Origin: Cyanobacteria bacterium P01_E01_bin.6
GTDB lineage: Bacteria > Cyanobacteriota > Cyanobacteriia > CAKZMO01
Reading direction: 5' to 3'
DNA length: 64,000 nucleotides
Assembly (NCBI GenBank): GCA_039194035.1
Contig: JBCCWF010000001.1
Coordinates: forward strand, 3,970-67,969
In this document: piece by piece, positions 38,553 to 64,000 of the stretch
How positions within the stretch are numbered: the stretch's first letter is position 1
Layout of the letters: each line of letters begins with the position of its first letter
Translations under genes and position numbers: made by a program
Notes under the pieces: model-generated
The model's database searches: none
What the model was told of the DNA's origin: nothing
The model's input: only the letters and a program-made list of their open reading frames with translations

Positions 38553-38560
38553 CCGCTATT

Positions 38561-39637: not shown

Positions 39638-39916
39638 GATTCATGGATCGGTCATGATCCGATGATGAGCAAAAAGGGCGATCGCCCTTTTTGCTCATCA
39701 TCTTAATTTCTTCTTTTACTGTCGTCACTCCCTTCGTCCTCCCCACCCCTTCACTCAGTATCGTGAGAGCGTATTTTGCAATCGTGATAAACAATCTGCA
39801 AAAGGCTCATGTCCTCGGTAGGATAGTAAGCATAGTTACAGAATTTTAGATGTTGTATTGACGCTGCGGGATGATCGTCAGTGAGCTGTCTAAGTTGTCT
39901 GTTTTGAATCGATTGT

Positions 39917-45570: not shown

Positions 45571-45573
45571 GCC

Positions 45574-47517: not shown

Positions 47518-49683
47518 ATGTTTGAAGCGCAATCAAGCAGTCAGTTTGAACAAGAGCTAGAGATTAAGAATAATGTTCTGTTCGGAGCTTTCGATGACGA
47601 CGACGACGATGACGATGATGATGATGACGACGACGATAACTCAACGGTAATCATTGAACGAGATAAGAATATCTTTGGATTCACCAGTGTCTTTATAGAA
47701 GGTCGCAGTAGTGTTGTCAGCAAAGAATTTACAACCTTCGGTGGATTAACGACCTCTGCGAATCTCTTTGTAGCCAAGCAATATGATTCCTCTGTGACCA
47801 TTTCAATGACGAGTGCCTCTGGAATTACTGACTCAATTGGCTATGTAGATGACGATGGCAATCTGATGCCAACGAAGGAAAATCCACTTGCTGGCAAGAA
47901 ATCAGGTGATATCTCTCAGCTTGATATTGAGAAATCGCTTAAGTTCAACCATGAATTAGTTCTCGTGAGCCTTACCCGACAACACATTGTTCAACTGCTT
48001 GAATATGCGCTGTCGACTGGTGATGCTAATCGTGCAGAGTCGTTGTTTCCTCAGGTGACTGGGCTGTCCTTCAGCTATGACCTTACGATGCCAGTAGGTA
48101 AGCGCGTGCGATCGCTTTCTGTGACCGATGAAGCAGGAAAAATACTCGACATTATTGTCAAGAAAGGTACCTTCCAGGGAAAGCAAAACAAGTCTTACCG
48201 GGTTGTAACCACCAATTTCTTGGCAAATGGTGGGGATGGATATTTGTTTCCGCAGCTTGCCTCGAATCGCATTAACCTCACAGAAGTCAATATCCAAAAT
48301 CAAACCAACATTGTAAAGTTCGCAAAATTTGGAACTGAGCAAAATGCATTGGCTGAATATTTAGCTCGTACGTATCGCACAACCCCATTCAAGACTCGAG
48401 AAACTACGATTGATCAAGACATTCGTATCCAAAATCTGAGCTTCCGATCAGATACGGTCATCGATATCAATGTGAACCAGTTTTTCCTCGTGGGCGGGAA
48501 GAAGAAAGATAAGATATTGGGTGGTAATCTAGACGATATCTTGAAAGGACAGGGAGGCGATGATCGGGTCGTGGGTCGTGGTGGTCACGACGATCTCTAT
48601 GGCAATAACGGGAACGACAAAGTCAAAGGAGGCTCCGGAAATGACAACATTTATGGAGGAAAAGGCAACGATAGACTCGTTGGTAGTAAAGGGGATGACA
48701 TCATCGATGGAGGTAAGGGCAATGACGTCATCATTGGCTCAAAAGGTGATGATACTTTGTTTGGGGGAGATGGGGATGACAGGATTTTAGGCGGTTCAGG
48801 TGACGATGATATGGATGGTGGCAAAGGCGATGATCGTCTCTCAGGAGGGCGTGGCAATGACGTGATCGCTGGCGGTGATGGAGATGATTTGCTTGTAGGA
48901 GGCCAGGGGGATGATGTTCTGCGAGGCGGCAAGGGAGATGACATCTTACTTGCTACTGGCGGTAATACGCTCTTAGATGGCGGAACAGGTGATGATTTAC
49001 TGGTTGGAGGGAAAGGGAACGATACGTTTGTGATTGCTGGTGCCGGAACTAAAACCATCCGTGAGTTTGGCTCAAATGGAAGCGATCGCCTCTTCTTTCA
49101 GGATTATTCGTTTGATGAACTATCCATTGAGCAATCGGGTAATGACACCGTCATTCAATTTGAGGACAACATTCTGGCGGTGCTTCTGAATGTTCAAGTT
49201 GAGACGATTGACGATTCACTCATTAACTCCCCTGACTCTAATACGGATCTATCTGAGCGTTTAGGAAAACCAAAATCTCTGACATTTGAGTATGTCGGGG
49301 GGACTGACCTTGTGACCGGGCAAGATTCTAAAAAAGCAACCGTTAATGGAGATGGCGATGAAGATGATGATTTAGCTTACTTTGTTGTTTCCGATCGGAA
49401 TAAAGTGTCTGATGTTCTAGACAACAAAGGCTCTACTTATTTCGAGGGTGAAGTCAACCTCGGGGATGAGTTTACGGCTGATATTGACATTGCAGGAACT
49501 AAAAAGTTCAAATCCAAGACGTTCATCTATCTTTTTGAGGATGCCAACGCATTCCAAGATGGAAAGCAACCTCTTCAATCTTTGCAATATCATACCTCCG
49601 GCTCAGAACCCATGAAGCTTGGGGACATCATCGGCGGTGTTGAATTGACCGCATATACCGGAGACTTAGGCAGCGCGAGTTAA
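47518..49683 (+). CDS. secreted RTX-type calcium-binding protein with N-terminal poly-Asp tract, 5'-nucleotidase C-terminal-like domain and haemolysin-type Ca-binding nonapeptide repeats
   Basis: D15 run (47596-47640). NFLANGGDGYLFPQ (5_nucleotid_C-like). More than 15 GGxGxDxLxG repeats (GGKGNDRLVGSKGDDIIDGGKGNDVIIG...). No N-terminal signal peptide, consistent with type I secretion. Confidence 0.7.
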   Translation: MFEAQSSSQFEQELEIKNNVLFGAFDDDDDDDDDDDDDDDNSTVIIERDKNIFGFTSVFIEGRSSVVSKEFTTFGGLTTSANLFVAKQYDSSVTISMTSASGITDSIGYVDDDGNLMPTKENPLAGKKSGDISQLDIEKSLKFNHELVLVSLTRQHIVQLLEYALSTGDANRAESLFPQVTGLSFSYDLTMPVGKRVRSLSVTDEAGKILDIIVKKGTFQGKQNKSYRVVTTNFLANGGDGYLFPQLASNRINLTEVNIQNQTNIVKFAKFGTEQNALAEYLARTYRTTPFKTRETTIDQDIRIQNLSFRSDTVIDINVNQFFLVGGKKKDKILGGNLDDILKGQGGDDRVVGRGGHDDLYGNNGNDKVKGGSGNDNIYGGKGNDRLVGSKGDDIIDGGKGNDVIIGSKGDDTLFGGDGDDRILGGSGDDDMDGGKGDDRLSGGRGNDVIAGGDGDDLLVGGQGDDVLRGGKGDDILLATGGNTLLDGGTGDDLLVGGKGNDTFVIAGAGTKTIREFGSNGSDRLFFQDYSFDELSIEQSGNDTVIQFEDNILAVLLNVQVETIDDSLINSPDSNTDLSERLGKPKSLTFEYVGGTDLVTGQDSKKATVNGDGDEDDDLAYFVVSDRNKVSDVLDNKGSTYFEGEVNLGDEFTADIDIAGTKKFKSKTFIYLFEDANAFQDGKQPLQSLQYHTSGSEPMKLGDIIGGVELTAYTGDLGSAS

Positions 49684-49860
49684 CTTAAAATTGATAAAGG
49701 CTCGTTACATTGCAATGGGCTTTTATCAATATCTTACCCGTGTCTTATTCATGCTTCTCGTGGTCATAGTCTGAAGAGAGAGATGTTTATGGGGATATTA
49801 CGTGTCCTCGTGAACATGTCTCTTGTGTCAACTAACGGATCTACTGACAGCTAAGTAAGT

Positions 49861-49945
49861 GGCCACAAAACCCATAAAACCCTTCGCCGTCCACTGCTCG
49901 GGTGGCGAAGGGTTGTGAATGTGGATCCTAATTGTGCCGAGGTAC
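49861..49945. repeat. divergent MITE family A-like copy (hairpin CCCTTCGCCGTCCACTGCTCGGGTGGCGAAGGG)
   Basis: Flanks resemble AAAACCCATAAAACC and GAGGTACTTATAG of family A. Lower confidence. Confidence 0.35.
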
Positions 49946-50168
49946 TTATAGCGTTTACCCTATGTCACGAACGCCTATATCACGAACGAGAGATGGCAGC
50001 GCCTTTTCTCCAGACTGCTGTGCATACACATCGTGTTTCATATACGCAAGATCGAAGAACCCTTTCTTAGTTCTCTTTGATGACTTCTTTCACCATTTCT
50101 GGGGATGGATGACGGGTTCTTTGCGTCAAAGAATGAATTAAAAATTTATGGCTATGGTTATTAAAGCT

Positions 50169-50265
50169 GACTTGGCAACGTTTGCAGAGGACTAGGGTTT
50201 GGAGCGCGCAACGCACGCCCCAAACCCTTAATTCTTCGTTGCCATTGTGAGAGGTTTGCCAAGTC
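50169..50265. repeat. MITE-like repeat family B copy 3
   Basis: GACTTGGCAACGTTTGCAGAGGACTAGGGTTTGGAGCGCGCAACGCACGCCCCAAACCCTTAATTCTTCGTTGCCATTGTGAGAGGTTTGCCAAGTC. Confidence 0.7.
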
Positions 50266-50422
50266 ATGTATTACCCCCGCGACTTGCTATGGAGAAATGA
50301 GAGGAGGGCTAGCTTCCTTTGACTAGGGTAATAAGCTGTTAGCGATTCAATTGCATGGCTGTACCCCTAATCCGGCAGGGTACAGCTACCAAAATACTCA
50401 AAACACGTGAATTTTAAGCTTA

Positions 50423-51526
50423 TCAAGCTGGGCAACGATGCTGATAAGCCTGCCAGGTTAAGCCTAAGAGGCAGATGGTGGCGATCGCCAATGTAATGAC
50501 ACCTATCGGACGATTGATCAACAACAGTGCAAAACTACTTGCCCAAGCGGTTAACGCATAAATGAGCAACACCGTTAGGCGGTGGGGAATGCCTGCAGAA
50601 AGTAGCCGATGGTGGAGGTGGCGCTGATCGGCTCTAAAGGGGGATTGTCCGTGTAAAAGGCGAGTTGCAATGACCGCGGACATGTCGACCAGCGGAACCG
50701 CTAACACAAGTGCAGGGAGGGCGATCGCCGTTACGGTTGCTGTTTTTGCTAGCCCCAGAATGCTAACACTCGCTAGTAAAAAGCCAATCAGATAAGACCC
50801 ACCATCTCCCATGAAAATAGTGGCTGGGTTGAAGTTGTAATAGAGAAATCCAATGAGGCTACCAATGAGTGGTAGTAATATGATGACCATAAATGGCTGA
50901 TGGGTTTGGATGCCAATGATGAGCATGACGGTGGCCGCGATGCCAGACACCCCAGCGGCAAGACCATCTAATCCATCTGTCCAATTAATTGCATTGACCA
51001 CTCCAGTGAGCCACAGAATCGTAATTGGCAAACTCAACCACTCTAATTGCACGATGCCGATGTTGGGAATCGATACAAAGTCAATGCGGACTCCCAATCC
51101 CCAAACCATGATGGCGATCGCACTTTGCATCCACAGGCGATGAAATGCCGAGAGATTGATCAAATCATCGGACAGGCCAATCAAAAAAAAGCTTGTGCTT
51201 CCGAGTAAAATACCCCACATGGGTGTCGGTAACTCAGTGAGCAACAGAGACTGACTCCACGCTGCCATTCCAAATCCAGCCAGCGTTCCAACTGCGATGG
51301 CAATGCCTCCGAGGCGCACGATGGGGCGCTGATGTACTTTTCGGGTGGACGGCCGATCAACTTGATTATAGCGTTGAGCAGTTCGATTAATGGCCGGAAT
51401 CGTCAGCAGGACAATCCCGAGGGAGCAGAGTGGAGCCAGCAAAATCCACAGGGAGATGGACGGACGCGATTCAAACAGAGGGGAAGACGAAAGCAGACTG
51501 AAACCAATGTCTGGAAGGAGTGGCAT
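50423..51526 (-). CDS. UDP-HexNAc:undecaprenyl-phosphate HexNAc-1-phosphate transferase (MraY/WecA/WbpL GT4 family), initiating glycosyltransferase
   Basis: 10-11 TM helices with conserved DD and NxxNxxDGxDGL motifs (NAINWTDGLDGLAAG). Confidence 0.7.
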   Translation of the reverse strand: MPLLPDIGFSLLSSSPLFESRPSISLWILLAPLCSLGIVLLTIPAINRTAQRYNQVDRPSTRKVHQRPIVRLGGIAIAVGTLAGFGMAAWSQSLLLTELPTPMWGILLGSTSFFLIGLSDDLINLSAFHRLWMQSAIAIMVWGLGVRIDFVSIPNIGIVQLEWLSLPITILWLTGVVNAINWTDGLDGLAAGVSGIAATVMLIIGIQTHQPFMVIILLPLIGSLIGFLYYNFNPATIFMGDGGSYLIGFLLASVSILGLAKTATVTAIALPALVLAVPLVDMSAVIATRLLHGQSPFRADQRHLHHRLLSAGIPHRLTVLLIYALTAWASSFALLLINRPIGVITLAIATICLLGLTWQAYQHRCPA

Positions 51527-51650
51527 GGTTCAAATGCATAGGTTGAGAGAACTGATGAATCGAGTCGGTTTAAAGGATGGGCACGCTTCATTCTTGTTGC
51601 AGAAGGCTTTGGAGACGGGTGATTATGTGACTGGCCTGCAACTATCGACA

Positions 51651-53192
51651 TCACGGTCGATTGGCTAATGTAAGCGTGTTGGCATACGACGTAAGTCGTT
51701 CCGACTGAACAACACCCTCAAACAAAACACTGTGATACTGACGAGCAATATGGTCAGGAGTGAAATGGTGCTGAAGATAGAGTCGTCCACTTTGCCCCAT
51801 TTGTTGTGCAATCGCTGGGGTTGAATGGAGCAGTCGAATAAAATCTGCCAGTCCTTGACTATCTCCACTCGTGAAGGTTGCTCCACATTCTGCATCGTGG
51901 ATCAGAGACGTCAGATAAGACTGGCGATCGCAAATGGCTGCAATCGGTCGTTGGGAGGCAAGTGCAGAATACAACTTACTGGGAGCGACAAGACCTTCTG
52001 CTTCTGGGGTGACACTGACCAGAGAGAGGTCGCAAGCCGTTAACGAAAAGGGCAGGTCAGCCTTATCTTGGTAGGGTAAAAAGAGGCCATTTTTCAATCC
52101 CAGAGCGTCGGCCTGCTCAATGAGATGCGTGCGCTTTGCTCCCCCTCCAATGAACACAAATTGGATGGGGTCATCCTTGAGCAATTGCATGGTCTCCAAA
52201 ATGGTTTGGGCATCATGGCACCGCCCCATATTCCCGGAATACATGACAGTAAATGGCGTGACTAAATTATGCTTGTGAGCGAACCAGTTTTCGTCCTTCT
52301 TCCGAGGAACAATGACCTCAGGATTTGCCCAACTGTGGATGATCGAAATTTTATCTGAGACCTCTGGGCAGTGGGCGATCACTCGTTCTTTCATCGATGA
52401 ACTAAGCACAATGATACTATCGGCCCGATTCCAGACTTGGCGATTGATCCAGCGCCAGAGTCGAGACACCCAATGGTCCTCATGAATGACGCTCAACTGA
52501 ATGGCAACATCAGGATACAGATCGTAGATAAGACAAACGTAAGACATGCCCAGAAACATCTTGGCGAGATATCCCAATACGGGGAGAAATGGGGGGGCCG
52601 TCGTAATTAAAATCTGATCCGTATGATGAGCGTTTCGAATCAGGTGGAGTGCTGCTCGGAGGCAATAAAATAGTCCATTTACCGCTTTACCCCGAATTCG
52701 GGAGGGCCAGAGACTCGCAAGGCGCGATCGCCGAATACTCACATGGCCATGGGTTTCTCGACTGGGTGCATCGGTGGATTGAAAGGCATAGGCAGGTTGT
52801 CCTGCAAAGACACGAATCCTGACCCCTTGCTGGCTAAGGTTCGTTACCAATTCGCTGAGCAATTGACCGGTGGGTGCATAGTCAGGCGTGAAGAACTGAT
52901 TGAGAATAATGAGCCTCGGAGAAACAGTACGTGAGGTGGTGTTGGCGTCTTCTGACTGAGGAGTAGATCGCTGGCCAAACAACGCACTGTGCTGTTTGTT
53001 GAAGTGGAGTCTTGGAGCTGATCGCACGAGGAATAGACCTCCAGAATAAGTGAGCACAGAGGCCATCGGATCAACAAGAGCACGAGCAACAATAATGCAC
53101 ATGTCTGCTAGTCCTGGACTCAAGGTTCTGGAGATGCACCGAGGTAGCCATGATGATTGAGCCAGATAGGGCATTGCCCTAGTGCTCAACAA
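51651..53192 (-). CDS. glycosyltransferase family 4 (GT-B, group 1); N-terminal start uncertain
   Basis: PRLIILNQFFTPDYAPTG (GT4 N-terminal domain). C-terminal E-x7-E region. Confidence 0.6.
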   Translation of the reverse strand: MLSTRAMPYLAQSSWLPRCISRTLSPGLADMCIIVARALVDPMASVLTYSGGLFLVRSAPRLHFNKQHSALFGQRSTPQSEDANTTSRTVSPRLIILNQFFTPDYAPTGQLLSELVTNLSQQGVRIRVFAGQPAYAFQSTDAPSRETHGHVSIRRSRLASLWPSRIRGKAVNGLFYCLRAALHLIRNAHHTDQILITTAPPFLPVLGYLAKMFLGMSYVCLIYDLYPDVAIQLSVIHEDHWVSRLWRWINRQVWNRADSIIVLSSSMKERVIAHCPEVSDKISIIHSWANPEVIVPRKKDENWFAHKHNLVTPFTVMYSGNMGRCHDAQTILETMQLLKDDPIQFVFIGGGAKRTHLIEQADALGLKNGLFLPYQDKADLPFSLTACDLSLVSVTPEAEGLVAPSKLYSALASQRPIAAICDRQSYLTSLIHDAECGATFTSGDSQGLADFIRLLHSTPAIAQQMGQSGRLYLQHHFTPDHIARQYHSVLFEGVVQSERLTSYANTLTLANRP

Positions 53193-53652
53193 TCTATTGG
53201 AAAGTGAAAGATAACGTTGCCTGGAGAAGAAATGTGACCCGATGGTGTTTGCGTTCAGGGAACCTAGATCTCAGTGCTTTTACACCTGCTTTCTATACAC
53301 GTTTCACACGCTAAGAGTGTTATACAAGCCTTTTACTTAGTGTCAGAACAAAATAGTGTCAGAACAAAATAAATTTATTTGCTCATATGGCAGGGATAAC
53401 GTTGGTACATAAAAGCCAATCAGAATCAGGCTGACTCATCGTTGATTAGTTCGCAATGGCCTATTGGAATCAGCACACGTTGAGCATACATTTATACTTT
53501 CAATGATCCGCAAGGTAGTCAGAAGAAAACGGGGTCAAACAATATAAATTTGCTGTAAAAAAAAAGAACGTCCTTGTGGAATTTACGTATAGTTATCCGG
53601 AATCAGAAACCCCACGTTCGATCAGCTGATGTGGAAAATGTTGCTGCTGTGA

Positions 53653-54261
53653 CTACATTCGTAATTGAGGATGGAGGCTAGCTCCAGTGTGACCTGTCAC
53701 TATCCAAAGAATCGATCGCCCAATATCCCGTGCAACCTTAATGAGAGATTCATTGGGTTGCTGGGAGGGGATGATGACGGGGGTAGTGGTGATTCCCCGA
53801 CTGCCGAAGACGAAAAAGGCGATCGCCCGTGCGCGGCGCATATGGAAATCTGAGGTGATGAGGTAAAGGTGGTGAATGTCGCGATCGCGAAAGTCTTTGA
53901 CGAGGGAGGTGAAGTTGGTGACGGTGTCGATAGCTCGGCGATCGATGTTGATGCGGTTATCGGCGATCGCGGCGCGTCGAAAAATGTCTTTGGCCTGTTG
54001 GGTCGATGCGCCAGAGGACACCCAAATATCTAAAGTTGGATGTTGTTGGGCAAAGAGTGCAGTGAATTCTTCCCGACCGGAGCCTCCTCCAAGGGTAAAG
54101 ATGACTTGAGGAATTGGAGATCGCATCTGAGCAAGGACTAAGCGAATTGGAATGAAACTAATGAGAAGGACGAGGATACTTGTGGTAAAAGCAACCCACA
54201 TAGTGCGATAGTTTTTTGAGCGGAGATACATCGAGATTCGGCTGATAAAGATTTTCAGCAT
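53653..54261 (-). CDS. DUF218 / YdcF-ElyC-SanA-like envelope biogenesis protein
   Basis: N-terminal TM. Conserved LGGGSGREEF...WVSSGAS pattern of DUF218. Confidence 0.5.
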   Translation of the reverse strand: MLKIFISRISMYLRSKNYRTMWVAFTTSILVLLISFIPIRLVLAQMRSPIPQVIFTLGGGSGREEFTALFAQQHPTLDIWVSSGASTQQAKDIFRRAAIADNRINIDRRAIDTVTNFTSLVKDFRDRDIHHLYLITSDFHMRRARAIAFFVFGSRGITTTPVIIPSQQPNESLIKVARDIGRSILWIVTGHTGASLHPQLRM

Positions 54262-54361
54262 TCCGCTCCAGTCTATCTATAAGAAGTGATTATCATCTAG
54301 TATTTGAGCCAAGCAGTTAGTATTTGAGCCAAGCAGTAGATGATTCTCGTGATTGTCTTTA

Positions 54362-55579
54362 TCAATGAGTACTTGTCACATCAGCCTTTATGGGTGTTTC
54401 CAAAATTCGGGAATATTCCAATTTCAGCTTACTGGCAATTTGATCCCATGAGTAATTTTCAAAAATGAATTGACGAGCGCGCTCGCCCATATCCTTTGCT
54501 TCAGAAGGATGATGGAGACAAGTCATTAACGCTGTTTCAATAGCATTTGGATTTGGATTAACAACATGGGCAACTCCATGCTTTGCTGCCTCAGGGAAAT
54601 TACATTCAGTTGTAATAATGCAGGGTAACCCTGATGCCATACCTTCCAAAATCGACATGCTACATCCTTCTGAGTAGGAAGGGGAGACGTAGAGATTAGC
54701 TGCTGCCAAAGCAGCATATTTCAGAGATCCTGACAGCATACCTGTAAAGGTTACAGCATCCAAACAATTTCTATCAGCAAAGTAACTTTGGACTGTGGGT
54801 GTAAAATTGATGCTATCTGGGCCTGCAACAATTAAGTGAATGTTATGAAACGTGGTACGAACGTTAGCAAATGCAGGAGCTAAAAGATCTAGCCCTTTTT
54901 TAGGATCAATGCGCCCTAAAAAAAGAATAAGTATCTTTCCCTTGAGCTCAGGAAAGTGTTGATAAAACAATTCCACGCTTGGCAATCGTTCAAATTCTTG
55001 TGGATGAATCCCATTGGGGATGAATGTTGTTTGAAGATGTCCTAATTGATTAACTTGTTCAGTTTCAGATAGAGAGAGAACCTGAATGGATTTGGCACAT
55101 TCAAGGGCACTTTTTTCAAAGCACGCGTAATAGACGCGTTTTTTCCATGCTTTGTAAGCGAGTGCCCAAGAATCAAGCATGCCGTGAGGGGTCATGATGT
55201 AAGGGCGTTGATGAATACGACAAATTGCATGAGTTAGTGTAACGATCGGCGCAAAAAGAGTATGAGTGTGAACAATGTCGTAATGTTGGATATTCTCTAC
55301 AAGCCATTGAATCAATGATGGACTGAATACTAGATCGCTACGATGCCAACTGGAAAAATAGCGTACTCGATAATGGTGCTCGCTAATCCACTGATTAATC
55401 GGAACAGATAATGTTTGAGAATCTTCTGCGTTGGTCGTCACAACGTCAACATTGATGTTGAGCTGTCCTAAAGTATTGGCTAAAGACTGAACGACCTGCG
55501 ATGTTCCTCCATAGGCAGACGCTAAGTACGGAATAACCATTAAAATTTTCATAAAATCAATTAGAGAAAGAAGGCTCAC
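54362..55579 (-). CDS. glycosyltransferase family 1 (GT4-type GT-B)
   Basis: MKILMVIPYLASAYGG N-terminus. C-terminal EGCSMSILEGMASGLPCI (E-x7-E). Confidence 0.7.
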   Translation of the reverse strand: MSLLSLIDFMKILMVIPYLASAYGGTSQVVQSLANTLGQLNINVDVVTTNAEDSQTLSVPINQWISEHHYRVRYFSSWHRSDLVFSPSLIQWLVENIQHYDIVHTHTLFAPIVTLTHAICRIHQRPYIMTPHGMLDSWALAYKAWKKRVYYACFEKSALECAKSIQVLSLSETEQVNQLGHLQTTFIPNGIHPQEFERLPSVELFYQHFPELKGKILILFLGRIDPKKGLDLLAPAFANVRTTFHNIHLIVAGPDSINFTPTVQSYFADRNCLDAVTFTGMLSGSLKYAALAAANLYVSPSYSEGCSMSILEGMASGLPCIITTECNFPEAAKHGVAHVVNPNPNAIETALMTCLHHPSEAKDMGERARQFIFENYSWDQIASKLKLEYSRILETPIKADVTSTH

Positions 55580-56757
55580 ATTGCTTCTAAAGCGTAGTCA
55601 ATGGCTTGTTCTAGACCATTACCAAAGGAAGCTGGAGAGAATTTCTGAACATGGGTCAGCGCTGCCTGTCCCATTTGTACTAAATCTAGATCCTTACGAC
55701 TGCTTAGTTTTTGCATCAACGCTGCCAATTGCATTACATTTTCAGGATCAAATCCAAAACCATTGCTCCCTTCAATAATCAACTCTGAATAGCAACCGCA
55801 TCGATTTGATACGAGAGCAGGCAGCCCAGCTGCTAATGCTTCGTTAACGACCAACCCCCACTGCTCACTTAATGCGGGGTGAATAAATCCACTCGCTAGA
55901 CCGAACCAATATGGAATCGCTTTGTAAGGCTGAAATCCAGGTAAATGTACACTTTGCTCGAGCTGACGATTTTGGATATGTGTCCTAATGCGATCGCTCT
56001 CTTGTCCACTCCCACAAATGACTAAATCCCATGCATTTTCTAAACCCACGGTTTTGCGATATTGGTCAAATGCTTCTATCAACCGTAGAACATTTTTACG
56101 GGGAATAAATCTAGTCACTGTAATAAAATAAGGGCGTATTGGAATCTGAGGATGATATTGGCGAATCGTGCAAGGATTATGCCGTGCTTGAGCAGCCTTC
56201 TCTGTGAAGTAATCATTATCAACGATATCGTACCCGTAAAAAATTCCTTGCGTTGAAAACCCTAGTTTCACTAAATACTCTTTATGTAATGCTCCACCGA
56301 CTAAGGCAGATTGAAACTTGCGCGTATATAAAAGCGATTTAAGTAATTCTTTCCACCTCGATCGGGGCGCGTCATCCCATTTACTTTCACTCATGAGGAT
56401 GGCCGGTCGTCGATGATGTTGTGCCCACTTCAGGGCCACTCGCGACATGGGATAGCCCCACCCTGGAATGACCAGAATATCTGGGTTCAGGTGTCGTAAG
56501 CAATTCGGTAATCGTTTTGCCGCGAGAGTGGATTGGGGATGGCGATGTCTAACATTGGGAACCTCTTTGGCAGGCAACAAAGTGACGAGAGGAAAACTAA
56601 TCTCTTTCTCTAAGTCTCCCCAAGGATGTTCGTCGGCATTATCTGTTTCCTGAATCGCTGTCAGCCGCCACCCTCGCTGTCTGAAAACAGCCTCGGCTGC
56701 ACGCAATCGAGCTGCATGATAGCCCCCAATATTATGAAATAAAACAACAATATGCAT
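55576..56757 (-). CDS. glycosyltransferase family 1
   Basis: MHIVVLFHNIGGYHAARL. C-terminal EQWGLVVNEALAAGLPALVS motif. Stop overlaps the downstream gene start by 4 nt. Confidence 0.7.
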   Translation of the reverse strand: MHIVVLFHNIGGYHAARLRAAEAVFRQRGWRLTAIQETDNADEHPWGDLEKEISFPLVTLLPAKEVPNVRHRHPQSTLAAKRLPNCLRHLNPDILVIPGWGYPMSRVALKWAQHHRRPAILMSESKWDDAPRSRWKELLKSLLYTRKFQSALVGGALHKEYLVKLGFSTQGIFYGYDIVDNDYFTEKAAQARHNPCTIRQYHPQIPIRPYFITVTRFIPRKNVLRLIEAFDQYRKTVGLENAWDLVICGSGQESDRIRTHIQNRQLEQSVHLPGFQPYKAIPYWFGLASGFIHPALSEQWGLVVNEALAAGLPALVSNRCGCYSELIIEGSNGFGFDPENVMQLAALMQKLSSRKDLDLVQMGQAALTHVQKFSPASFGNGLEQAIDYALEAM

Positions 56758-56822
56758 AAATGGAAGAAAGCATAACTCCTAGTAAGCCATCAGCCAGTAA
56801 TCACTATATGTATTTAGAGACC

Positions 56823-58193
56823 TCATTCAGAGGCATTTTCATGGTTTTTAGAAATATTGCTCCCAACTGAATGGGCTGAACCTCCATATGATTGCTGATA
56901 CCACTCCTGGTATAGGCGCTTTAAATCAAACTCTTTGCGCTTAATCCACAGCACTAGGAAACAGGGCCAAAACGCCATGCCTAACCAAGCTACTATCCCT
57001 GCCATGTCTCCTCCTCGTAAAACAGGCACCAGTGAAGCACATATCATTGCTCGTACCAATACACCTGCAAAGGGATGAAGCCACACCGTCCAGCGAACAA
57101 GTCGAGCCAGAACAATGCCGTAACCAATTGCCAGAGCTACCATGGCAATCATGCCGCCTTCGCTGTAGAAATCGCCAAATAAGGTTGGCGAAATACCAAT
57201 GGTGAATCCTCCATGTGCACTGGACAGTCCGGCTTGAGCCATATAACCTCCTCCCACTGGCTTATATGGCCAAATGGCCCTTGGGATTGGTCGAAGTAAT
57301 ATCTCCAAATGGGTCATTCCGAGGCGAAAGGGTACGCGATTAGGCATAAAGCGCCTGAGGATTACAAAACCATCCAGCATGTTGGCATCCTCTGCGCCGA
57401 TGAAACGTTCAAGAGCAACAGCCTGCAACGTTCCATCAGCGCCGTGACTGCGCAGCGCACCAGCAATCGCAAATACACTGGCGGCTAAAACAAGAAATCC
57501 ACCCAAAAAACACAACCGATATTTTGGCTTGAAAGAAGATGAGAAGATAATACCTGTAGTTGCGAGCCAACCAATAAGTTGAAAGCGACCGCTTACTTTG
57601 AAGGTTAAATTCGCAACACCCACCAAAATAATGATGGCTGCGACTTTATGCCACCGGCGCGGCATTCCTCCAAATTTCCACATACACATAATCAGCGTAG
57701 CAATTCCGACCAAGACGAAAGGAAACTGATACAGATATCCACTGACCTGAAAAGCTAAGGATCGTCCTGCTCGGAGTTGTCCCACAACACTGCCACGAGT
57801 AATGAGCACCAACGGCAGACAGAATAAGCCAAATGTGATTACCTTGGGTCGAAGCCACACCAGAAATGGGCTGAGAGTCATTGATTCGACGATTGGCATT
57901 CGCCGCTTTTGGTTCCAGAGATATGCAATTAAAAAGCAGCTTTGAGCCAATACTAAGTAAGCTAGTGCCTCAAGCGATTCAGAGGTTGTAACGCGAGGAA
58001 TACCAAATTGGGACAAATTGACCCAATTGTTTAACCCGATGGAAACCACCCAGTACCGATAGCCCGTTACGTACAGAAGGAAAAAGCTAACTAGCAAGGG
58101 AATTTCATCATTGCGGCGCAATAACCAAAAACAACCAATAGCTAGCCAGCCAAGCTGTATTCCAATCAGTTCTGGGTAGTTAAGCAGAGGCAT
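56823..58193 (-). CDS. O-antigen ligase / Wzy-like polysaccharide polymerase membrane protein
   Basis: ~12 TM helices with a large periplasmic loop. Sits in the glycosyltransferase cluster. Confidence 0.5.
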   Translation of the reverse strand: MPLLNYPELIGIQLGWLAIGCFWLLRRNDEIPLLVSFFLLYVTGYRYWVVSIGLNNWVNLSQFGIPRVTTSESLEALAYLVLAQSCFLIAYLWNQKRRMPIVESMTLSPFLVWLRPKVITFGLFCLPLVLITRGSVVGQLRAGRSLAFQVSGYLYQFPFVLVGIATLIMCMWKFGGMPRRWHKVAAIIILVGVANLTFKVSGRFQLIGWLATTGIIFSSSFKPKYRLCFLGGFLVLAASVFAIAGALRSHGADGTLQAVALERFIGAEDANMLDGFVILRRFMPNRVPFRLGMTHLEILLRPIPRAIWPYKPVGGGYMAQAGLSSAHGGFTIGISPTLFGDFYSEGGMIAMVALAIGYGIVLARLVRWTVWLHPFAGVLVRAMICASLVPVLRGGDMAGIVAWLGMAFWPCFLVLWIKRKEFDLKRLYQEWYQQSYGGSAHSVGSNISKNHENASE

Positions 58194-59433
58194 TGACTAA
58201 ATTTTGTAGAGTGCAGGCTAACTGATTCAAGCTGTAGCAACTCATCGCATGCCGCGAATGAATTTGGTTTGCCCAGTACTGTAGATATTCAGGGTGTCGA
58301 CAGCAGCTTAATAGGGCATCTGCTATTGCTTTACCAGATATCTCAGGCAGGATCAGGCCATTTTGTTGATGATTCACAACTGCTCCGCAGTGACGCGACG
58401 CAATCACTGGCAGTTTCCATGTCTGGGCTTCAAGTTGAGTCAGCCCAAATCCATCTGAATGAGTCGGAAGTAAAAAGACATCGGCCTGCTGATAATAGTT
58501 TTGAACATGACTTCTGGGAACTCGTTCCACCCATTTGAGTTGTGGGTGTTTCATTAATGCTGATGGGAGAGTTAAGTCTGATGGTCCTACCAGCCAAATT
58601 TCGACGGGGTTTTGGTGGAGATAGGGAAGTGATTCCATTAACGCGGCAATGCCTTTTCGGAGAATAATTTGCCCTAAGAACAAAACGCGTAAGGGACGAA
58701 CGGATGTGAATTGGGTTGGGTAGGTTCGGGAAAACGTTGTGGCTTCTATCGGAGCTTGATGTGCCAGGGGGGCGATCGCTATTTTTTTCTTAGGAATACT
58801 CGCCTGAACTAGTGCTGTTTCGGACCAGGTGGAATTCACAATAATATGGTCGGCTAGCTCACATTCCTGCTGCCATTTCTGCCAATACAATTCAGGTGCA
58901 GGTGTCCAAGAAGATTGGTAGTGCGAACCGTAGCAAGCATGTAGTGTTGCGACTTGCTGTTCCTCGACAATGCCAGGATCAATCTGCCCAAGAACGTTAC
59001 ACCAACCCTGTTGCTTGGCATAGCGAAAGAGCTCTAACGCTGCGTAGCTGTAGCTGAAGAGAATGGGGCGATCGCCCGGTTTCAACTTAGCAGATAATGC
59101 TTTCAAAGATATTAGTGCATGGTGCTGAAACCATTGATTGCGGGCCAAAATCCTTGACCACCCAGTGGTTTGTGAAACAGTTTGCCTCAGTTCAAATGGA
59201 ATCAGTGAAGCGGTAAAGGATTGAACATGAGCTGTCTTTAGATCTGTGTGGTAGCGTTCGGCCAGTGATTGAGAAACGCTACCAGGTAAGTGATGAATCG
59301 GAGAGCGAGGGGGAACCCATGCATCAGTAATGAGGTATTGTAATTGCCCCGCCTGATGTAGTGCGCGAGGAATAGAGTAGTGTTCTCGTGCCCCAATTTG
59401 GCAACAAATCCAGGAATAGGTAGGCATTCTCAA
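58180..59433 (-). CDS. glycosyltransferase family 1
   Basis: C-terminal GT1 motif (DVFLLPTHSDGFGLTQLEAQTWKLPVIAS). Confidence 0.65.
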   Translation of the reverse strand: MRMPTYSWICCQIGAREHYSIPRALHQAGQLQYLITDAWVPPRSPIHHLPGSVSQSLAERYHTDLKTAHVQSFTASLIPFELRQTVSQTTGWSRILARNQWFQHHALISLKALSAKLKPGDRPILFSYSYAALELFRYAKQQGWCNVLGQIDPGIVEEQQVATLHACYGSHYQSSWTPAPELYWQKWQQECELADHIIVNSTWSETALVQASIPKKKIAIAPLAHQAPIEATTFSRTYPTQFTSVRPLRVLFLGQIILRKGIAALMESLPYLHQNPVEIWLVGPSDLTLPSALMKHPQLKWVERVPRSHVQNYYQQADVFLLPTHSDGFGLTQLEAQTWKLPVIASRHCGAVVNHQQNGLILPEISGKAIADALLSCCRHPEYLQYWANQIHSRHAMSCYSLNQLACTLQNLVNASA

Positions 59434-59439
59434 ATGTCT

Positions 59440-60279
59440 CTATTTAGGTTGAAACACAGTGTTGTTTACCCATGTGTCATCCGTGAGATAGCCAAGTTTG
59501 AGCAGCAAATCCCCTGCTTCTTGGTGGAAAAAAACGCGATCGCTCTCCTTAAACGCCTCTTGCCATTGTTGGGTCTTTTGACCATTGTAGTAACCAATGA
59601 TGGCACTACTTTCCGGTTGCCATTGGGTCAACCGAGCCCAGCGCCCTTGCCAAATATTCTGAGGTGATTGAGGCAATAATGGTTCTACGTAACGTGGCAT
59701 CAACTCTAAACTTTCAGCGAGGCTAGCAATAGTCTGACGAGGTTTTTTGATAAGGTCTTCAAATTTCAGTACATAAATATCTGGCAAATCGGCCCAGGCT
59801 TTTACGTGCTCAGCCCATGCGCGAACTCTACTTTTTCCGTTTACCTGTTGTTGGAGAAATTCACTCAAGGAACATCGAGTTTCTGGCGAAAAGCTTTGCA
59901 TAAATACGTGCAATGAGCACAATACTGAACGACCATCCCTTACGACATAAATCTTGTGGGCTTTTTGATGAATCCATTCCTGCAATCCACCGTGCTCAGA
60001 TGTCAGATGTGCAAGTGCTGGATACGCATGGGTTTTAATCAAAGGACGTGGCGATCGCCCTAGGATGGTTATCGCTGTTTGTAGAGGAATACCCTTGCGT
60101 TTAGCTATTAATCCTTCAAGAGGAACATAAAGACGATCGAGCGGTTCGCCAGGGTATTTCCAGGACGCACAGGCTAAAAACTGTTTCCGGAGGGTATCAA
60201 TAGTGAGGTGAGTTCCTGAGCGGGGATGGCTGGCTACCAAAACTGGATTGGCCAAAGACCCTAGACAATTAGGCATCAA
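59440..60279 (-). CDS. sulfotransferase (PAPS-dependent)
   Basis: N-terminal 5'-PSB-like VLVASHPRSGTHLT. KIYVVRDGRSVLCSL (3'-PB-like RDxR). Confidence 0.6.
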   Translation of the reverse strand: MMPNCLGSLANPVLVASHPRSGTHLTIDTLRKQFLACASWKYPGEPLDRLYVPLEGLIAKRKGIPLQTAITILGRSPRPLIKTHAYPALAHLTSEHGGLQEWIHQKAHKIYVVRDGRSVLCSLHVFMQSFSPETRCSLSEFLQQQVNGKSRVRAWAEHVKAWADLPDIYVLKFEDLIKKPRQTIASLAESLELMPRYVEPLLPQSPQNIWQGRWARLTQWQPESSAIIGYYNGQKTQQWQEAFKESDRVFFHQEAGDLLLKLGYLTDDTWVNNTVFQPK

Positions 60280-60304
60280 GTGATGGTCTCTTTAATTAGG
60301 ATGG

Positions 60305-60844
60305 CTACAGAAGAAATGGAGCATAATTTAGGGAATACATAAGTTTAGATGTGCGATCGCCAATCTTCCGAGCTGGGTTGCCAGCTACAATTGTGTAAGG
60401 TTCTACATCCCTCGTGACCACAGCACCTGCACCGACAACGGCTCCGTCACCGATGGTGACACCAGGGAGAATAATGGCTCGATAAGCAATCCAAGCGCGA
60501 TCGCCAATCACCACATCCCCTCCCTTATCACTGAAGCTAGGACACTGAGGATCATGGCCTAACGTCAGAATTGTCGCTTCTGGACCAATCGATACATCAT
60601 TTCCTGTTTTGATAGTGTAGCGGCGACCATCAAATAAACAGCCAAAGTTAATGATGTTGCGATCGCCCAAATAAACTTTGCGACCATTTAGAAACCGACA
60701 TCCTATTTGGACAGAAGATTGTTTTCCTAGCAGAGCTAGATAGTGCCTTAGATAGAAATGACGAAGGCTACTAATGGGAAGATTACCAAATATAGAACTG
60801 TAAGAAAAGCTGAGGATAGAGCCGATAATAACTTTGTAGCTCAT
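60305..60844 (-). CDS. hexapeptide-repeat (LbH) acetyltransferase, WcaF/colanic-acid-type
   Basis: Repeated [LIV]GxxxxI hexapeptides (VVIGDRAWIAYRAIILPGVTIGDGAVVGAGAVV). Confidence 0.65.
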   Translation of the reverse strand: MSYKVIIGSILSFSYSSIFGNLPISSLRHFYLRHYLALLGKQSSVQIGCRFLNGRKVYLGDRNIINFGCLFDGRRYTIKTGNDVSIGPEATILTLGHDPQCPSFSDKGGDVVIGDRAWIAYRAIILPGVTIGDGAVVGAGAVVTRDVEPYTIVAGNPARKIGDRTSKLMYSLNYAPFLL

Positions 60845-60855
60845 AGAGAATCAAA

Positions 60856-61674
60856 TTATTTTTGAGCTTGGTAAGCTAATATAACTTCACAAGGTGAAGC
60901 TTCATTCTCCCCACCTTCAACAATATAGTTATGAACTTTGAGTAAATCGACAATAGATCTACCTTTAGTGTCAAAGTCATGAATTTCCATGCTAATCCAA
61001 CGAGGATATTGTTTTTGTTCAAGAAGAGTAGGGAGTACTTCATATTCAGCCCCTTCTATATCCAACTTCAACCAGCAATTCTCGCGAATTTGAGGCAAAA
61101 TACAGCGAATGGGAACTCCAGGTGGGTTTTCATTCACAAAGCCAGTTTCAGAAGACTTTGTATGATAGTAGAGCGTAGTATCTTTTGACCAAAGTCCAAG
61201 TTTATGGGTCTTAACCTGAAAGTTGTTCCGCTTGAGATTGTTGCAGAGTAGTTGGAAGTTGTCTGGATCGGGTTCATAGCAAACTATAGTTGCATTAGGA
61301 AATTGATGCGCAGCTTGTATTGCAAACATTCCGATGTTGGCTCCGCCATCGATAATCATCTCTGGTTCAAAATTAGGAACTTGATATCCCCCTCTTACAA
61401 ACTCTCCTGCCATCAAATAGTCGCCTTCATTGCCACGACGCATCAGAAATTTTACTTGCTTATTTTTATTCTTATTCCTAATTTCCAGTTTAACTTCGAT
61501 TAAGTTGTCAACGGTAACTGCATCGATTTGTTGGCGAAACCAAGATCTTATTTTAGGACGATGATGACCAATTACCCCCAATCCTGCAATTAGGAAGGCA
61601 ACTTTCTTATCTCGGAGAGAAATGCCTTGATTTGCATGACCTGAAAGTTGGAAAAGAGTTGAAAGAGTAGACAT
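60856..61674 (-). CDS. FkbM-family SAM-dependent methyltransferase
   Basis: IIDGGANIGMFAIQAAHQFPNATIVCYEPDPDNF matches the FkbM domain signature. Confidence 0.65.
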   Translation of the reverse strand: MSTLSTLFQLSGHANQGISLRDKKVAFLIAGLGVIGHHRPKIRSWFRQQIDAVTVDNLIEVKLEIRNKNKNKQVKFLMRRGNEGDYLMAGEFVRGGYQVPNFEPEMIIDGGANIGMFAIQAAHQFPNATIVCYEPDPDNFQLLCNNLKRNNFQVKTHKLGLWSKDTTLYYHTKSSETGFVNENPPGVPIRCILPQIRENCWLKLDIEGAEYEVLPTLLEQKQYPRWISMEIHDFDTKGRSIVDLLKVHNYIVEGGENEASPCEVILAYQAQK

Positions 61675-61724
61675 TTGTAAAGACTATAGACAGCTAGTTT
61701 AGAACTTCAGGAAAAGCTAATTCA

Positions 61725-62873
61725 TCAGTGCTCTAATGCTTTTAAGGTAAGATGAGCATTGCTTTCCCAAGAGTTCTCTTTAATGTAGGTATTCCAGTTC
61801 GCGGACGATGTTGCGGAACCTGAAAGCCATTGACTCAGTCCTAGTGCAATTGCTTTTGAGTTATCCGGCTCTACCCAAATTCCTAAGTTGTGACGATGGA
61901 TGACTGAAGTAAGACAACCCTCTCCTCCAGAAGCAAGACAAAGCTTATGGCACTGAACTGCCGTATTAAGAACACCACTAGCCGAACGAAAATTGCGGCT
62001 GTAAGTTAGCAAAATCAGATCTGTTGCCATAAAAAAGTCGGCAACCTCGCCATCTGGAATAAATCGAATCTGCCAACGAATGCGATCGCCCACTCCCAGT
62101 TCTTTCGCGAGTTCCTGGTAACCACGGGCTAATGGCCGACTAGATGATGATTCTTCACCTGCAATTACCAGGTAAACATCTGAAACTTCAGCCATAGCGC
62201 GAATTACCAAATCTAGATTCTTATTGGGTCGCAGGTGTCCAAATGCAAGCATGACTTTAGCTTCAATAGGTAAGTTGAGGCGCGATCGAATTTCCTCTCT
62301 CGATAGACTTGACTCTGGAAAACGATAAGGTCCGTGAGGAATAACTGTTGTTCGCAGTTGGGACATGGAGCGCACGGTATCTAGCTCAATGGCCTCATGG
62401 ACAAACGCTTCTCTCAGAAATGAGTAGCCACTGGCGATTGACCAACGGTGCCACCAGAGTGGCCCCAACACAAAGTCACGTACTGGGTCATGTACAACAG
62501 CCCCAAAAACAACTCCTTGGTGAGCCAAACGCCTTAGCGGACCAGTCCACAGGGGGGCAATATACTCTGAGTAGCTGCCGAATAAGACATGGCGAATCTG
62601 CTGCTGCCGAATCACCTGGACCAGGGTTTTGATATTGGCAATCGTGATAATAGTGTAGCGGCTGACCTTCAATATTGTGTTGTTGATAGGAGTATTGGGC
62701 TTCAGCTCTTGCAGCGTAGGGAGAATTTTATATTTCTCTCCCCGTCCAGTTGGGTAGTGGGGTGTGGTGAGCAGCGTGACATCAGCTCCAAGGTCAACTA
62801 ATGCGTTAGCTTGCTCATGGGCATAGTCAGCAATACCCCCATGGCTAACGGGAGAGTAATAAATTAGTTTCAT
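61725..62873 (-). CDS. glycosyltransferase family 1
   Basis: MKLIYYSPVSHGGIADYAHEQ. GT-B C-terminal domain. Confidence 0.6.
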   Translation of the reverse strand: MKLIYYSPVSHGGIADYAHEQANALVDLGADVTLLTTPHYPTGRGEKYKILPTLQELKPNTPINNTILKVSRYTIITIANIKTLVQVIRQQQIRHVLFGSYSEYIAPLWTGPLRRLAHQGVVFGAVVHDPVRDFVLGPLWWHRWSIASGYSFLREAFVHEAIELDTVRSMSQLRTTVIPHGPYRFPESSLSREEIRSRLNLPIEAKVMLAFGHLRPNKNLDLVIRAMAEVSDVYLVIAGEESSSSRPLARGYQELAKELGVGDRIRWQIRFIPDGEVADFFMATDLILLTYSRNFRSASGVLNTAVQCHKLCLASGGEGCLTSVIHRHNLGIWVEPDNSKAIALGLSQWLSGSATSSANWNTYIKENSWESNAHLTLKALEH

Positions 62874-62881
62874 TAGCTAGC

Positions 62882-63670
62882 TTAATTAAGTTGATATGCA
62901 TATTCATAAATCTCATATTCAAGCTCATGCCGTTGCTTAAAAGTTATAATTGACTTCTGAGAAGGTCTATTATCCCTTTCTGTAACATTTGAAATGGGAA
63001 TTTCAATGGATTGAAATCCTAGTTTTGAAGCTAAAATGTCAATAGATTTTTGATATTTTTCAAGAATACAGATATGGATGAAATTCTTGTTGATTATTTC
63101 TTTAAAGTTTCTGCTTGAAACTTCCCAAGGTAAAAGCTTTAACAGGTAAAAATCTCTATTCAAAAGCCATTCATCAATATTAGGAAATTCAAAGTCATTT
63201 TGCAGCTCTCCCTCCCAGTATAAATTTCCAGATAAAATCATTTTTCTCATGTAGTGAAAAAGAGAAATATGCATCTCTAATGGATCACGTAAAGTCATTA
63301 TGAATTGACATGCATCAGGATAATGATCGAATACATTTTCATTTGAGATATAGGGTTGAAAATGTCCATGAACACATTCAGGTTGTTTTACGCGCCTAAT
63401 AAATCCATACGTTCTATCCAGAGAAACTATCCTTTTTTTGGCAACCTTCCGGTGATTTTTGTAATGTAAATAGAGACCACATCCTAGAACTTGTTGTAGC
63501 TTGAGATCAATACCTTTGAATGTTAATAGACTAGCTAATCTAGGATGATCATTAAGATTTGGAAACGTAGTCTTATTAAACCACTTACTTAGAGCATATT
63601 CCAAACTGGAGCCACCTGTCTTAGGGATATGAAGAGAAAACAAAGGCTTACTTGGATCATATACTCTCAT
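62882..63670 (-). CDS. sulfotransferase family protein (Sulfotransfer_2/3-like)
   Basis: N-terminal LHIPKTGGSSLEY PAPS-binding motif typical of carbohydrate sulfotransferases. Confidence 0.55.
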   Translation of the reverse strand: MRVYDPSKPLFSLHIPKTGGSSLEYALSKWFNKTTFPNLNDHPRLASLLTFKGIDLKLQQVLGCGLYLHYKNHRKVAKKRIVSLDRTYGFIRRVKQPECVHGHFQPYISNENVFDHYPDACQFIMTLRDPLEMHISLFHYMRKMILSGNLYWEGELQNDFEFPNIDEWLLNRDFYLLKLLPWEVSSRNFKEIINKNFIHICILEKYQKSIDILASKLGFQSIEIPISNVTERDNRPSQKSIITFKQRHELEYEIYEYAYQLN

Positions 63671-63682
63671 AATTATGGCGTA

Positions 63683-63787
63683 ATAAGTACCTGAACGTAA
63701 TTAAAACTAAAAAAAAATCCTTTGCCACCCATGCAGCACGCAGGCGGCAAAGGATCTTGAAGGACACGTTTAAATTATGGCTATCTA
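63683..63787. repeat. MITE-like repeat family A copy 9 (inverted; hairpin variant CCTTTGCCACC / GGCGGCAAAGG)
   Basis: AAGTACCTGAACGTAATTAAAACTAAAAAAAAATCCTTTGCC...ACGTTTAAATTATGGCTATCTACTTA. Confidence 0.65.
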
Positions 63788-64000
63788 CTTACAATGTATC
63801 TACCAGTCTTCATTTCTGTAAAAATAGTGAGATATTTCTTCCACAGAGTTTCGAATTTTAGTAATTTCTTGAATATCGAGTTCTTTTTTCCATCGCATAA
63901 TATTTTCACGACTATTACGTTTTCTAAATGCCCAATCGCTTCCTGATGCTTTAGTAGGATTAGAAGTATTCGTGAAATCTTGAATGTAATTTTCAACAGG

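Follow-up and report, generated by a model that had tools for sequence, protein, structure and literature searches.

Results

A polysaccharide locus with sulfotransferases

This study concerns a polysaccharide locus near the end of a 64,000-nucleotide stretch of contig JBCCWF010000001.1 from Cyanobacteria bacterium P01_E01_bin.6, which is called the window below. Reading of its open reading frames (ORFs) with Pfam and NCBIfam places 12 ORFs, all on the minus strand, at positions 50423-63670. We estimate at roughly two in three the probability that the locus makes a decorated heteropolysaccharide by a Wzy-dependent route, most likely a sulfated capsular or released exopolysaccharide (EPS) of a marine cyanobacterium; the source organism is probably marine. 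The best reading of the gene content is that the product would be sulfated, acetylated and methylated. An earlier note made from the letters alone, the sequence-only reading, had listed a priming transferase, five glycosyltransferases, a Wzy-like polymerase, an acetyltransferase, an FkbM methyltransferase and two sulfotransferases between 50423 and 63670. All of these genes are present on the minus strand where they had been placed, and their Pfam and NCBIfam families fit, but the list omitted a DUF218 gene (53653-54261) and a probable third sulfotransferase, and by its gene content the locus runs past 63670 to the window end and beyond.

Sulfotransferases ST1 and ST2 and a probable ST3

The sulfotransferase ST1 matches PF00685 well above the cut-off and across nearly the full model (Table 1). 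Its sequence carries the segments PRSGTH, LIKTH and RDGRSVLCS, the last two of which are aligned to SULT1C3 by a phmmer search against the PDB: LIKTH falls on the conserved LIKTH segment, and YVVRDGRSVLCS falls on YVARNPKDCLVS of SULT1C3, its 3'-phosphate-binding (3'-PB) loop for 3'-phosphoadenosine 5'-phosphosulfate (PAPS). In cytosolic sulfotransferases (SULTs) the LIKTH segment holds the catalytic His; ST1 retains this residue together with the 5'-phosphosulfate-binding and 3'-PB loops.

ST2 is recognized at the level of its family. Scored alone, it reaches at best 15.5 bits with PF00685 (cut-off 22, E 0.012), and it has no NCBIfam match and no Pfam match at E≤0.01. The more distant relatives of ST2 include carriers of PF03567; in total, six of nine aligned members of the ST2 family match it (best E 2.7e-9), and a profile aligns the family motifs with the PAPS-binding loops of heparan sulfate (HS) 2-O-sulfotransferase. 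These motifs, HIPKTGG(S/T)S (core PKTGG(S/T)S) and LRDPxExxxS, are invariant or near-invariant in the family, and ST2 retains them as HIPKTGGSS and LRDPLExxxS, corresponding to the PAPS 5'-phosphosulfate-binding (5'-PSB) and 3'-PB motifs. A Foldseek search with the AlphaFold model of ST2 (pLDDT 87.8) returns 4ndz and 3f5f at the top (probability 1.0, TM ~0.5); the top PDB match is heparan sulfate 2-O-sulfotransferase, followed by tyrosylprotein sulfotransferases (TPST) and SULTs. The protein is 100% identical to AAGA75_00315, which is recorded as a hypothetical protein, and it has homologues at 50-59% identity, one of which is named a sulfotransferase family 2 protein by NCBI. The assignment of ST2 as a sulfotransferase is thus supported by family, motifs and predicted fold. 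The sequence-only reading had called both proteins PAPS-type sulfotransferases, with the caveat that HMMs might not bear this out; the calls hold, ST1 being backed by PF00685 directly and ST2 through its family, both PAPS motifs and the fold.

A third sulfotransferase (ST3), of the Sulfotransfer_3 type, is probable at the window end. Over 65 aa, the fragment found there shares 48% identity with the C-terminal end of a 312-aa protein on TARA scaffold L031, which matches PF13469 (42.9 bits) and lies directly upstream of ST2, GT4e and FkbM homologues of 59-62% identity; it is this similarity together with the L031 synteny that makes the assignment likely. The 66-codon fragment alone has no Pfam match.

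Neither ST1 nor ST2 contains a hydrophobic segment, so both are expected to act in the cytoplasm, ahead of repeat-unit flipping, and the best reading of their activity is a predicted PAPS-dependent sulfuryl transfer to a sugar acceptor. Their link to polysaccharide synthesis is drawn from recurring context. The closest ST2 match among GTDB representatives (49% identity) comes from a Cyclobacteriaceae metagenome-assembled genome of the Bacteroidota (L002), where it is part of a Wza-Wzc-Wzx-pyruvyltransferase-GT2-oxidoreductase-methyltransferase-ST2-GT2 cluster at positions 1005-11823. Many weaker relatives of the ST2 family also occur in Alphaproteobacteria, such as Phenylobacterium, Nitrospirillum and Brevundimonas. 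These relatives in Bacteroidota and Alphaproteobacteria are relevant to a published statement according to which only cyanobacteria make sulfated polysaccharides.

Wzy-type membrane protein

The best call for the product of 56823-58193 is a Wzy-type polymerase, as judged from its family. Among 26 close family members, 24 match TIGR04370 (oligosaccharide repeat unit polymerase) at E≤0.1, with a best value of 4.6e-14. The family is large and well conserved: it gave 425 matches, the best 120 of which lie at 48-77% identity, and its named members come from Nostoc, Fischerella, Scytonema, Coleofasciculus, Trichocoleus, Calothrix and others, some of them annotated as polymerase. The fold of the protein resembles FtsW, RodA and WaaL (SEDS/WaaL-like), a likeness that does not separate a polymerase from a ligase, and a Foldseek search against the PDB gave no match. 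The Wzy family is also found at 37-48% identity in many JGI metagenome contigs, apparently from soil (L053, L055-L111, L113-L121); these contigs retain GT4d with Wzy but not the other core genes, and they often have a Bac_transf priming enzyme in the vicinity.

Conserved core and variable decoration cassette in related loci

Related contigs with close homologues were compared by tblastn, and 86 loci (numbered with the prefix L) entered the linkage counts. The comparison reveals a core in the order GT4d-Wzy-GT4c-GT4b at 50-77% identity, syntenic in L034, L036, L038, L039, L041, L046, L048, L049, L050, L051, L052 and L112. GT4d (52-67% identical in relatives, where it stands beside Wzy) is present in 62 of the 86 loci, and GT4c (50-71%) and GT4b (52-62%) are syntenic in relatives. 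Directly after GT4b, DUF218 homologues of 53-57% identity are found in L041, L046, L048 and L049, followed in L041, L048 and L049 by GT4a homologues of 55-60% identity, which occur in L051 and L112 as well. Judged by this conservation after the core, DUF218 and GT4a are real members of the locus family. Export genes then adjoin the conserved genes in two relatives. A Wzc gene follows the GT4a homologue on the same strand in L049, its product being 49% identical to the Wzc of L041 (Cyanothece sp. SIO1E1), where the GT4a homologue is in line with Wzc (746 aa, Wzz and kinase domains) and Wza (377 aa, Poly_export/SLBB). The position of these genes beside the core points to Wzy-dependent synthesis with Wzc/Wza export.

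Upstream of GT4d stands a semi-conserved decoration block of GT4e, the hexapeptide acetyltransferase and ST1. In L038, L050 and L052 an ST1 homologue immediately precedes GT4d, and in L036 and L039 one is found a few genes ahead of GT4d. The acetyltransferase is 66-72% identical in L001, L036, L038, L045, L046, L049 and L112. GT4e homologues of 55-61% identity adjoin ST2, the hexapeptide transferase or both in L001, L031, L036, L038, L045, L046 and L112, and on this evidence GT4e travels with the decoration cassette. The FkbM protein is 62% identical to its truncated L031 homologue over the 189 aa available, and sugar O-methylation is predicted for it from its family. The outer region of the relatives is variable and holds more glycosyltransferases, methyltransferases and sulfotransferases. 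Of the 19 loci in which Wzy identity reaches 50% or more, sulfotransferases were detected in 10, numbering between one and three in each; L038 and L039 carry three apiece, L036 a single one and L040 none.

Gene arrangement

From ST2 to GT4b (63670 to 54362, 9.3 kb) the junctions measure between -14 and +65 bp, and by this spacing the stretch looks like a single tight nine-gene operon. The sequence-only reading had described many overlapping stops and starts. The GT4d stop does overlap the Wzy start by 14 nt, as it also does in L034, L036 and L041, and this is the only robust overlap of the locus; the 4-nt overlap of GT4c and GT4b hinges on a GTG start, with an ATG 27 nt further in, and the remaining operon junctions are short gaps of 6-65 bp. 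Beyond the operon, the gap from GT4b to DUF218 is 100 bp and that from GT4a to the WecA-like gene is 124 bp. The gap from DUF218 to GT4a is at least 460 bp and probably about 590 bp, because the L041 homologue aligns only from GT4a residue 74; the real start of GT4a is probably at 53066 or 53027, which would give a protein of roughly 460-470 aa.

On the other side, a strong intrinsic terminator hairpin lies between the probable ST3 and ST2, and ST3 is likely in a transcription unit separate from the ST2 operon. The hairpin folds as RNA at -28 kcal/mol (z -4.4) and none of 200 shuffled sequences folds as well; a pattern scan caught only a 6-bp inner part of its stem at 63723-63738. The GT4b-DUF218 gap contains a perfect 20-bp tandem direct repeat, CTGCTTGGCTCAAATACTA(A/G) in two copies at about 54300-54342 (minus-strand reading), which may be a regulatory site. 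No Rfam RNA family was found in 49000-64000, and a sigma-70 promoter scan gave 10 sites against 24 expected from shuffled sequence, so that no promoter is claimed. Convergent with the cluster is a gene for a 721-aa protein at 47518-49683 (plus strand) that combines RTX repeats with a 5'-nucleotidase C-terminal domain and DUF7467; in L034, too, the homologous core is followed by an RTX-repeat protein.

Table 1. Features of the polysaccharide locus, in order of transcription (window positions)
Feature	Position	Strand	Basis and remarks
Probable third sulfotransferase fragment (ST3), Sulfotransfer_3 type, C-terminal 66 codons	63800-64000	-	Gene exits window end; 32% GC
Intrinsic terminator, hairpin and run of nine U	63709-63758	-	Between third sulfotransferase and ST2
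ST2, 262 aa, Sulfotransfer_2/HS 2-O-sulfotransferase type	62882-63670	-	Family, motifs, predicted fold; first gene of nine-gene operon; 32% GC
GT4e glycosyltransferase	61725-62873	-	Pfam Glycos_transf_1, 61 bits
FkbM SAM-dependent (S-adenosylmethionine) methyltransferase	60856-61674	-	PF05050, 36 bits; TIGR01444, 68.9 bits (cut-off 37.7)
Left-handed beta-helix (hexapeptide) O-acetyltransferase, WcaF-like	60305-60844	-	Hexapep, 46 bits; WcaF family, 82 bits (cut-off 192)
ST1, 279 aa, Sulfotransfer_1 family	59440-60279	-	PF00685, 52.8 bits (cut-off 22); probable ATG start 60276
GT4d core glycosyltransferase	58180-59433	-	Pfam GT4/Glycos_transf_1; probable start 59427
Wzy-type polymerase, 456-aa polytopic membrane protein	56823-58193	-	Family-level TIGR04370; no own Pfam/NCBIfam match
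GT4c core glycosyltransferase	55576-56757	-	Glycos_transf_1, 116 bits
GT4b core glycosyltransferase, HpsP-related	54362-55579	-	Glycos_transf_1, 101 bits; alternative ATG start 55552
DUF218 protein, one N-terminal membrane segment	53653-54261	-	PF02698, 34.6 bits; hydrophobic residues 25-43
GT4a, WcaI-like GT4	51651-53192	-	WcaI family, 124 bits (cut-off 276)
WecA-like polyprenyl-phosphate N-acetylhexosamine-1-phosphate transferase (PNPT)	50423-51526	-	PF00953, 134 bits

Hydrophobic segments are absent from the FkbM methyltransferase, GT4a, GT4c, GT4d and GT4e; one weak segment each is found in the acetyltransferase and at the N-terminus of GT4b, where the GTG start is doubtful. The PNPT has nine hydrophobic segments, its PDB matches are MraY and GPT, and it scores 132 bits with ECA_wecA and 64 bits with mraY, both under the equivalog cut-offs. 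The possibility that it is the MraY of the cell was rejected on the latter score (cut-off 192).

Base composition is uneven along the locus. The window has a GC content of 48%, and the PNPT gene (0.51), GT4a and DUF218 lie near 50%. Apart from ST2, the operon genes have 39-47%. ST2 and the third sulfotransferase fragment fall to 32% (GC at third codon positions ~0.25), and this difference from the window suggests that these outermost sulfotransferases were acquired recently.

Other genes in the window

Elsewhere in the window, phage-tail and baseplate genes (Tail_P2_I, Baseplate_J, gp25) lie at 16259-20195 (minus strand). They adjoin large ORFs at 7622-16278 (minus strand), among them ORFs of 957 aa and 543 aa with no Pfam match, a WD40 protein and a Cache/HAMP/cNMP-binding protein; the phage-tail region could be part of a contractile injection system or a prophage remnant. 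A haem-related island at 26817-41014 (plus strand) encodes a ResB-like protein, two CcsA-like cytochrome c assembly proteins, a 344-aa protein with two globin domains, two multihaem c3/MtrC-like cytochromes, a Tll0287-like protein, a ChaN haem-binding protein and an EamA transporter. To our knowledge, multihaem Mtr-like cytochromes are unusual in a cyanobacterium. The plus strand also carries a DNA methyltransferase pair, C5-cytosine and MT-A70, at 765-2389 and a BlaI/BlaR1-like repressor and sensor-protease pair at 45031-46452.

Discussion

Proposed pathway and its alternatives

The gene content suggests the following route. A polyprenyl-phosphate carrier would be primed, the candidate enzyme, named for its adjacency alone, being the WecA-like PNPT, and up to five cytoplasmic GT4 enzymes would assemble the repeat unit on the inner face of the membrane; the order of the glycosyl transfers and the identity of the sugars would be matters of inference. 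While still lipid-linked and in the cytoplasm, the repeat unit would be sulfated from PAPS by the soluble ST1 and ST2 and probably by the third, Sulfotransfer_3-type enzyme, O-acetylated by the hexapeptide transferase and O-methylated by the FkbM enzyme. An unlinked Wzx flippase would presumably translocate it, the Wzy-type protein would polymerise it, and a Wzc/Wza pair encoded elsewhere, such as that found in related loci, would export the polymer.

Several observations weigh against this pathway. Scored singly against curated HMMs, ST2 stays below cut-off, and the Wzy protein of the window alone reaches only 11.6 bits with TIGR04370 (cut-off 40). No PAPS-synthesis gene was found in the window. 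As the sequence-only reading had stated for Wzx, Wzc and Wza, a scan of window ORFs of at least 150 aa, which did not take in every such ORF, gave no Wzx, Wzc, Wza, KpsMT or WaaL. Six related loci with Pfam tables also contain no Wzx; tblastn has low sensitivity for Wzx, and its null result, obtained with Bacteroidota Wzx and XssH as probes, is read only alongside these gene tables. A missing Wzx in related loci is normal for the scattered polysaccharide genes of cyanobacteria, and Wzx may be encoded elsewhere or on the roughly 14 kb of the 78,358-bp contig that lie outside the window. The GC content also divides the locus, with about 50% in the WecA-like gene, GT4a and DUF218 against 32-47% in the operon, and the gap of at least 460 bp lies between DUF218 and GT4a. 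Finally, in Leptolyngbya FACHB-16 a block of ST2-GT4e-acyltransferase-acetyltransferase-ST1 lies beside a Wzt ABC-transporter cluster with no Wzy core; the decoration cassette thus moves between export types and is not bound to one route.

The WecA-like gene stands apart, because a PNPT is found near the core in one of the 86 related loci only, at 32% identity, and is absent from the other 85, while a Bac_transf enzyme stands near the core instead in 12 more distant (soil) loci; these counts also tell against the pathway as drawn above. It is possible, although we do not favour it, that the nine-gene operon, DUF218 and GT4a form the polysaccharide locus, that the WecA-like gene is a neighbouring housekeeping gene and that priming is done by an unlinked enzyme. 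The GC content of this gene (0.51) is typical of the window, against 0.32-0.47 in the operon, and its score lies under the WecA equivalog cut-off. However, GT4a and DUF218 are also window-typical in GC content and yet are conserved members of the locus, and the WecA-like gene has the same orientation as GT4a, which ends only 124 bp before it. Moreover, cyanobacterial polysaccharide genes are often scattered, so that absence from relatives is weak evidence (PMC8205485, PMC12267927).

As to the product, the main rival to a capsular or released EPS is a cell-bound glycan, for example a sulfated O-antigen that is made by a Wzy-dependent route and then ligated to lipid A-core. Synthesis of O-antigen and of enterobacterial common antigen (ECA) classically begins with WecA-type priming, and a WecA-type gene is adjacent to the locus. 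No Wzc or Wza is among the scanned ORFs of the window, some members of the Wzy family are named 'O-antigen polymerase' by NCBI, and the fold comparison leaves a WaaL-type ligase on a par with a polymerase. Nevertheless, we consider a cell-bound glycan unlikely, since in L041 and L049 the core, DUF218 and GT4a are directly followed by Wzc, a polysaccharide co-polymerase (PCP) of type PCP-2a with a tyrosine-kinase domain, and in L041 also by Wza; this linkage marks capsule or EPS export and disfavours O-antigen ligation. The sequence profiles also put the membrane protein in the polymerase family TIGR04370. The exopolysaccharide claimed by the sequence-only reading therefore finds its backing in the related loci, but nothing in the window itself tells EPS from a capsular or lipopolysaccharide-linked glycan.

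That the sulfotransferases act on a glycolipid, a small metabolite or a protein instead of the repeat unit, or are inactive, is very improbable: bacterial members of these families do sulfate lipo-oligosaccharides in rhizobia and mycobacteria (as cited in PMC8205485), and the low GC content of ST2 and the third sulfotransferase gives them the look of recent arrivals, but both PAPS-binding motifs and the family-invariant residues are intact, ST1 and ST2 sit within a tight operon of glycosyltransferases and Wzy, and other polysaccharide clusters again pair ST2 with GT4e and the acetyltransferase with ST1.

A wider implication of the Wzy-dependent, sulfated-polysaccharide reading can be put forward only tentatively. 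The related loci may represent a widely conserved and undescribed chassis, ST1-GT4d-Wzy-GT4c-GT4b-DUF218-GT4a(-Wzc-Wza), which is unrelated to the synechan (xss) cluster and which exchanges horizontally upstream cassettes of glycosyltransferases and up to three sulfotransferase families. We speculate in this direction because of the 32% GC of ST2 and ST3 and because the nearest ST2 among genome representatives lies in the Bacteroidota Wza-Wzc-Wzx cluster. If true, such a chassis would be a natural combinatorial system in which one conserved backbone receives differing sulfation patterns, and it would open bacterial sulfated polysaccharides to genetics by a second route that does not depend on xss.

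Comparison with known systems

In the literature that we found, synechan/xss is the only bacterial sulfated-polysaccharide pathway worked out genetically, and the sequence-only reading had suggested a comparison with it. The analogy stands at the level of a sulfated-polysaccharide locus. Like the present locus, xss of Synechocystis sp. PCC 6803 (pSYSM, sll5042-sll5060) is a cyanobacterial Wzy-type cluster with several glycosyltransferases; both have at least two cytoplasmic sulfotransferases of different subfamilies, and in both at least one export component is encoded elsewhere. Orthology, in contrast, was rejected. Comparison by blastp with all pSYSM xss products gave superfamily-level matches only and no orthologue of XssA-P; the best matches are at the level of the GT4 domain (26-30% identity over partial lengths), and ST1 matches XssE at 26% over 116 aa (E 8e-4). 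When all PLSDB plasmids were searched by tblastn with ST1, ST2 and Wzy, pSYSM was not among the matches, and XssQ, XssR and XssS had no tblastn match in the whole window at E≤1e-3. The two systems also differ in priming, with a PNPT candidate here and the Bac_transf enzyme XssP in xss. Wzx, PCP and the XssQ/R/S regulators are features of xss that were not found in this window, whereas the acetyltransferase and methyltransferase present here are not listed for xss.

The colanic acid and group 1 capsule clusters of Enterobacteria have in common with our locus a WcaF-like acetyltransferase, a WcaI-like GT4, a Wzy-type polymerase and, in related loci, Wzc/Wza export. All of the matches here are under the NCBIfam equivalog cut-offs, however, and the PNPT candidate is not WcaJ; sulfotransferases and FkbM are found here, and nucleotide-sugar synthesis genes are not. 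The hormogonium polysaccharide (hps) genes of Nostoc punctiforme are similarly related at a distance. GT4b matches the HpsP model over its full length (256 bits, cut-off 550) and the acetyltransferase weakly matches HpsU (55 bits, cut-off 305), but membership in hps was rejected, as HpsP, HpsO and HpsU all score far under their cut-offs; by these scores GT4b and the acetyltransferase are paralogous GT4 and hexapeptide proteins and not hps genes.

The closest parallel is provided by genome surveys. Maeda et al. 2021 (PMC8205485) state that cyanobacteria commonly carry sulfotransferases of PF00685, PF03567 and PF13469, mostly in putative Wzx/Wzy- or ABC-type polysaccharide clusters that are 'more or less partial'; such genes are reported to be abundant in marine and saline species. 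A follow-up of 2026 describes numerous clusters of this kind, mostly in non-model species, and terms them 'cyanobacterial-type SPS biosynthetic units' (SPS, sulfated polysaccharide; PMC13125312). The definition of this unit includes the xssQ-xssR-xssS module, which was not found in this window; the surveyed clusters (PMC8205485, Figure 4-figure supplement 1) likewise combine sulfotransferases of these three families with a partial Wzx/Wzy-type cluster. Our comparisons indicate that the locus family is widespread, uncharacterised and unrelated to synechan. Its core is found again, mostly at 50-75% identity, in related contigs, of which several come from named cyanobacteria, and the locus unites at least two, probably three, sulfotransferase families with acetylation and methylation. 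Biomaterials and heparin-like or carrageenan-like products create a demand for sulfated polysaccharides, and if the chemistry is confirmed, the locus would provide a second model system and a source of compact, soluble bacterial carbohydrate sulfotransferases for engineering. In its overall plan, the locus fits the survey of Maeda et al. 2021 and extends the known biology of these clusters without overturning it.

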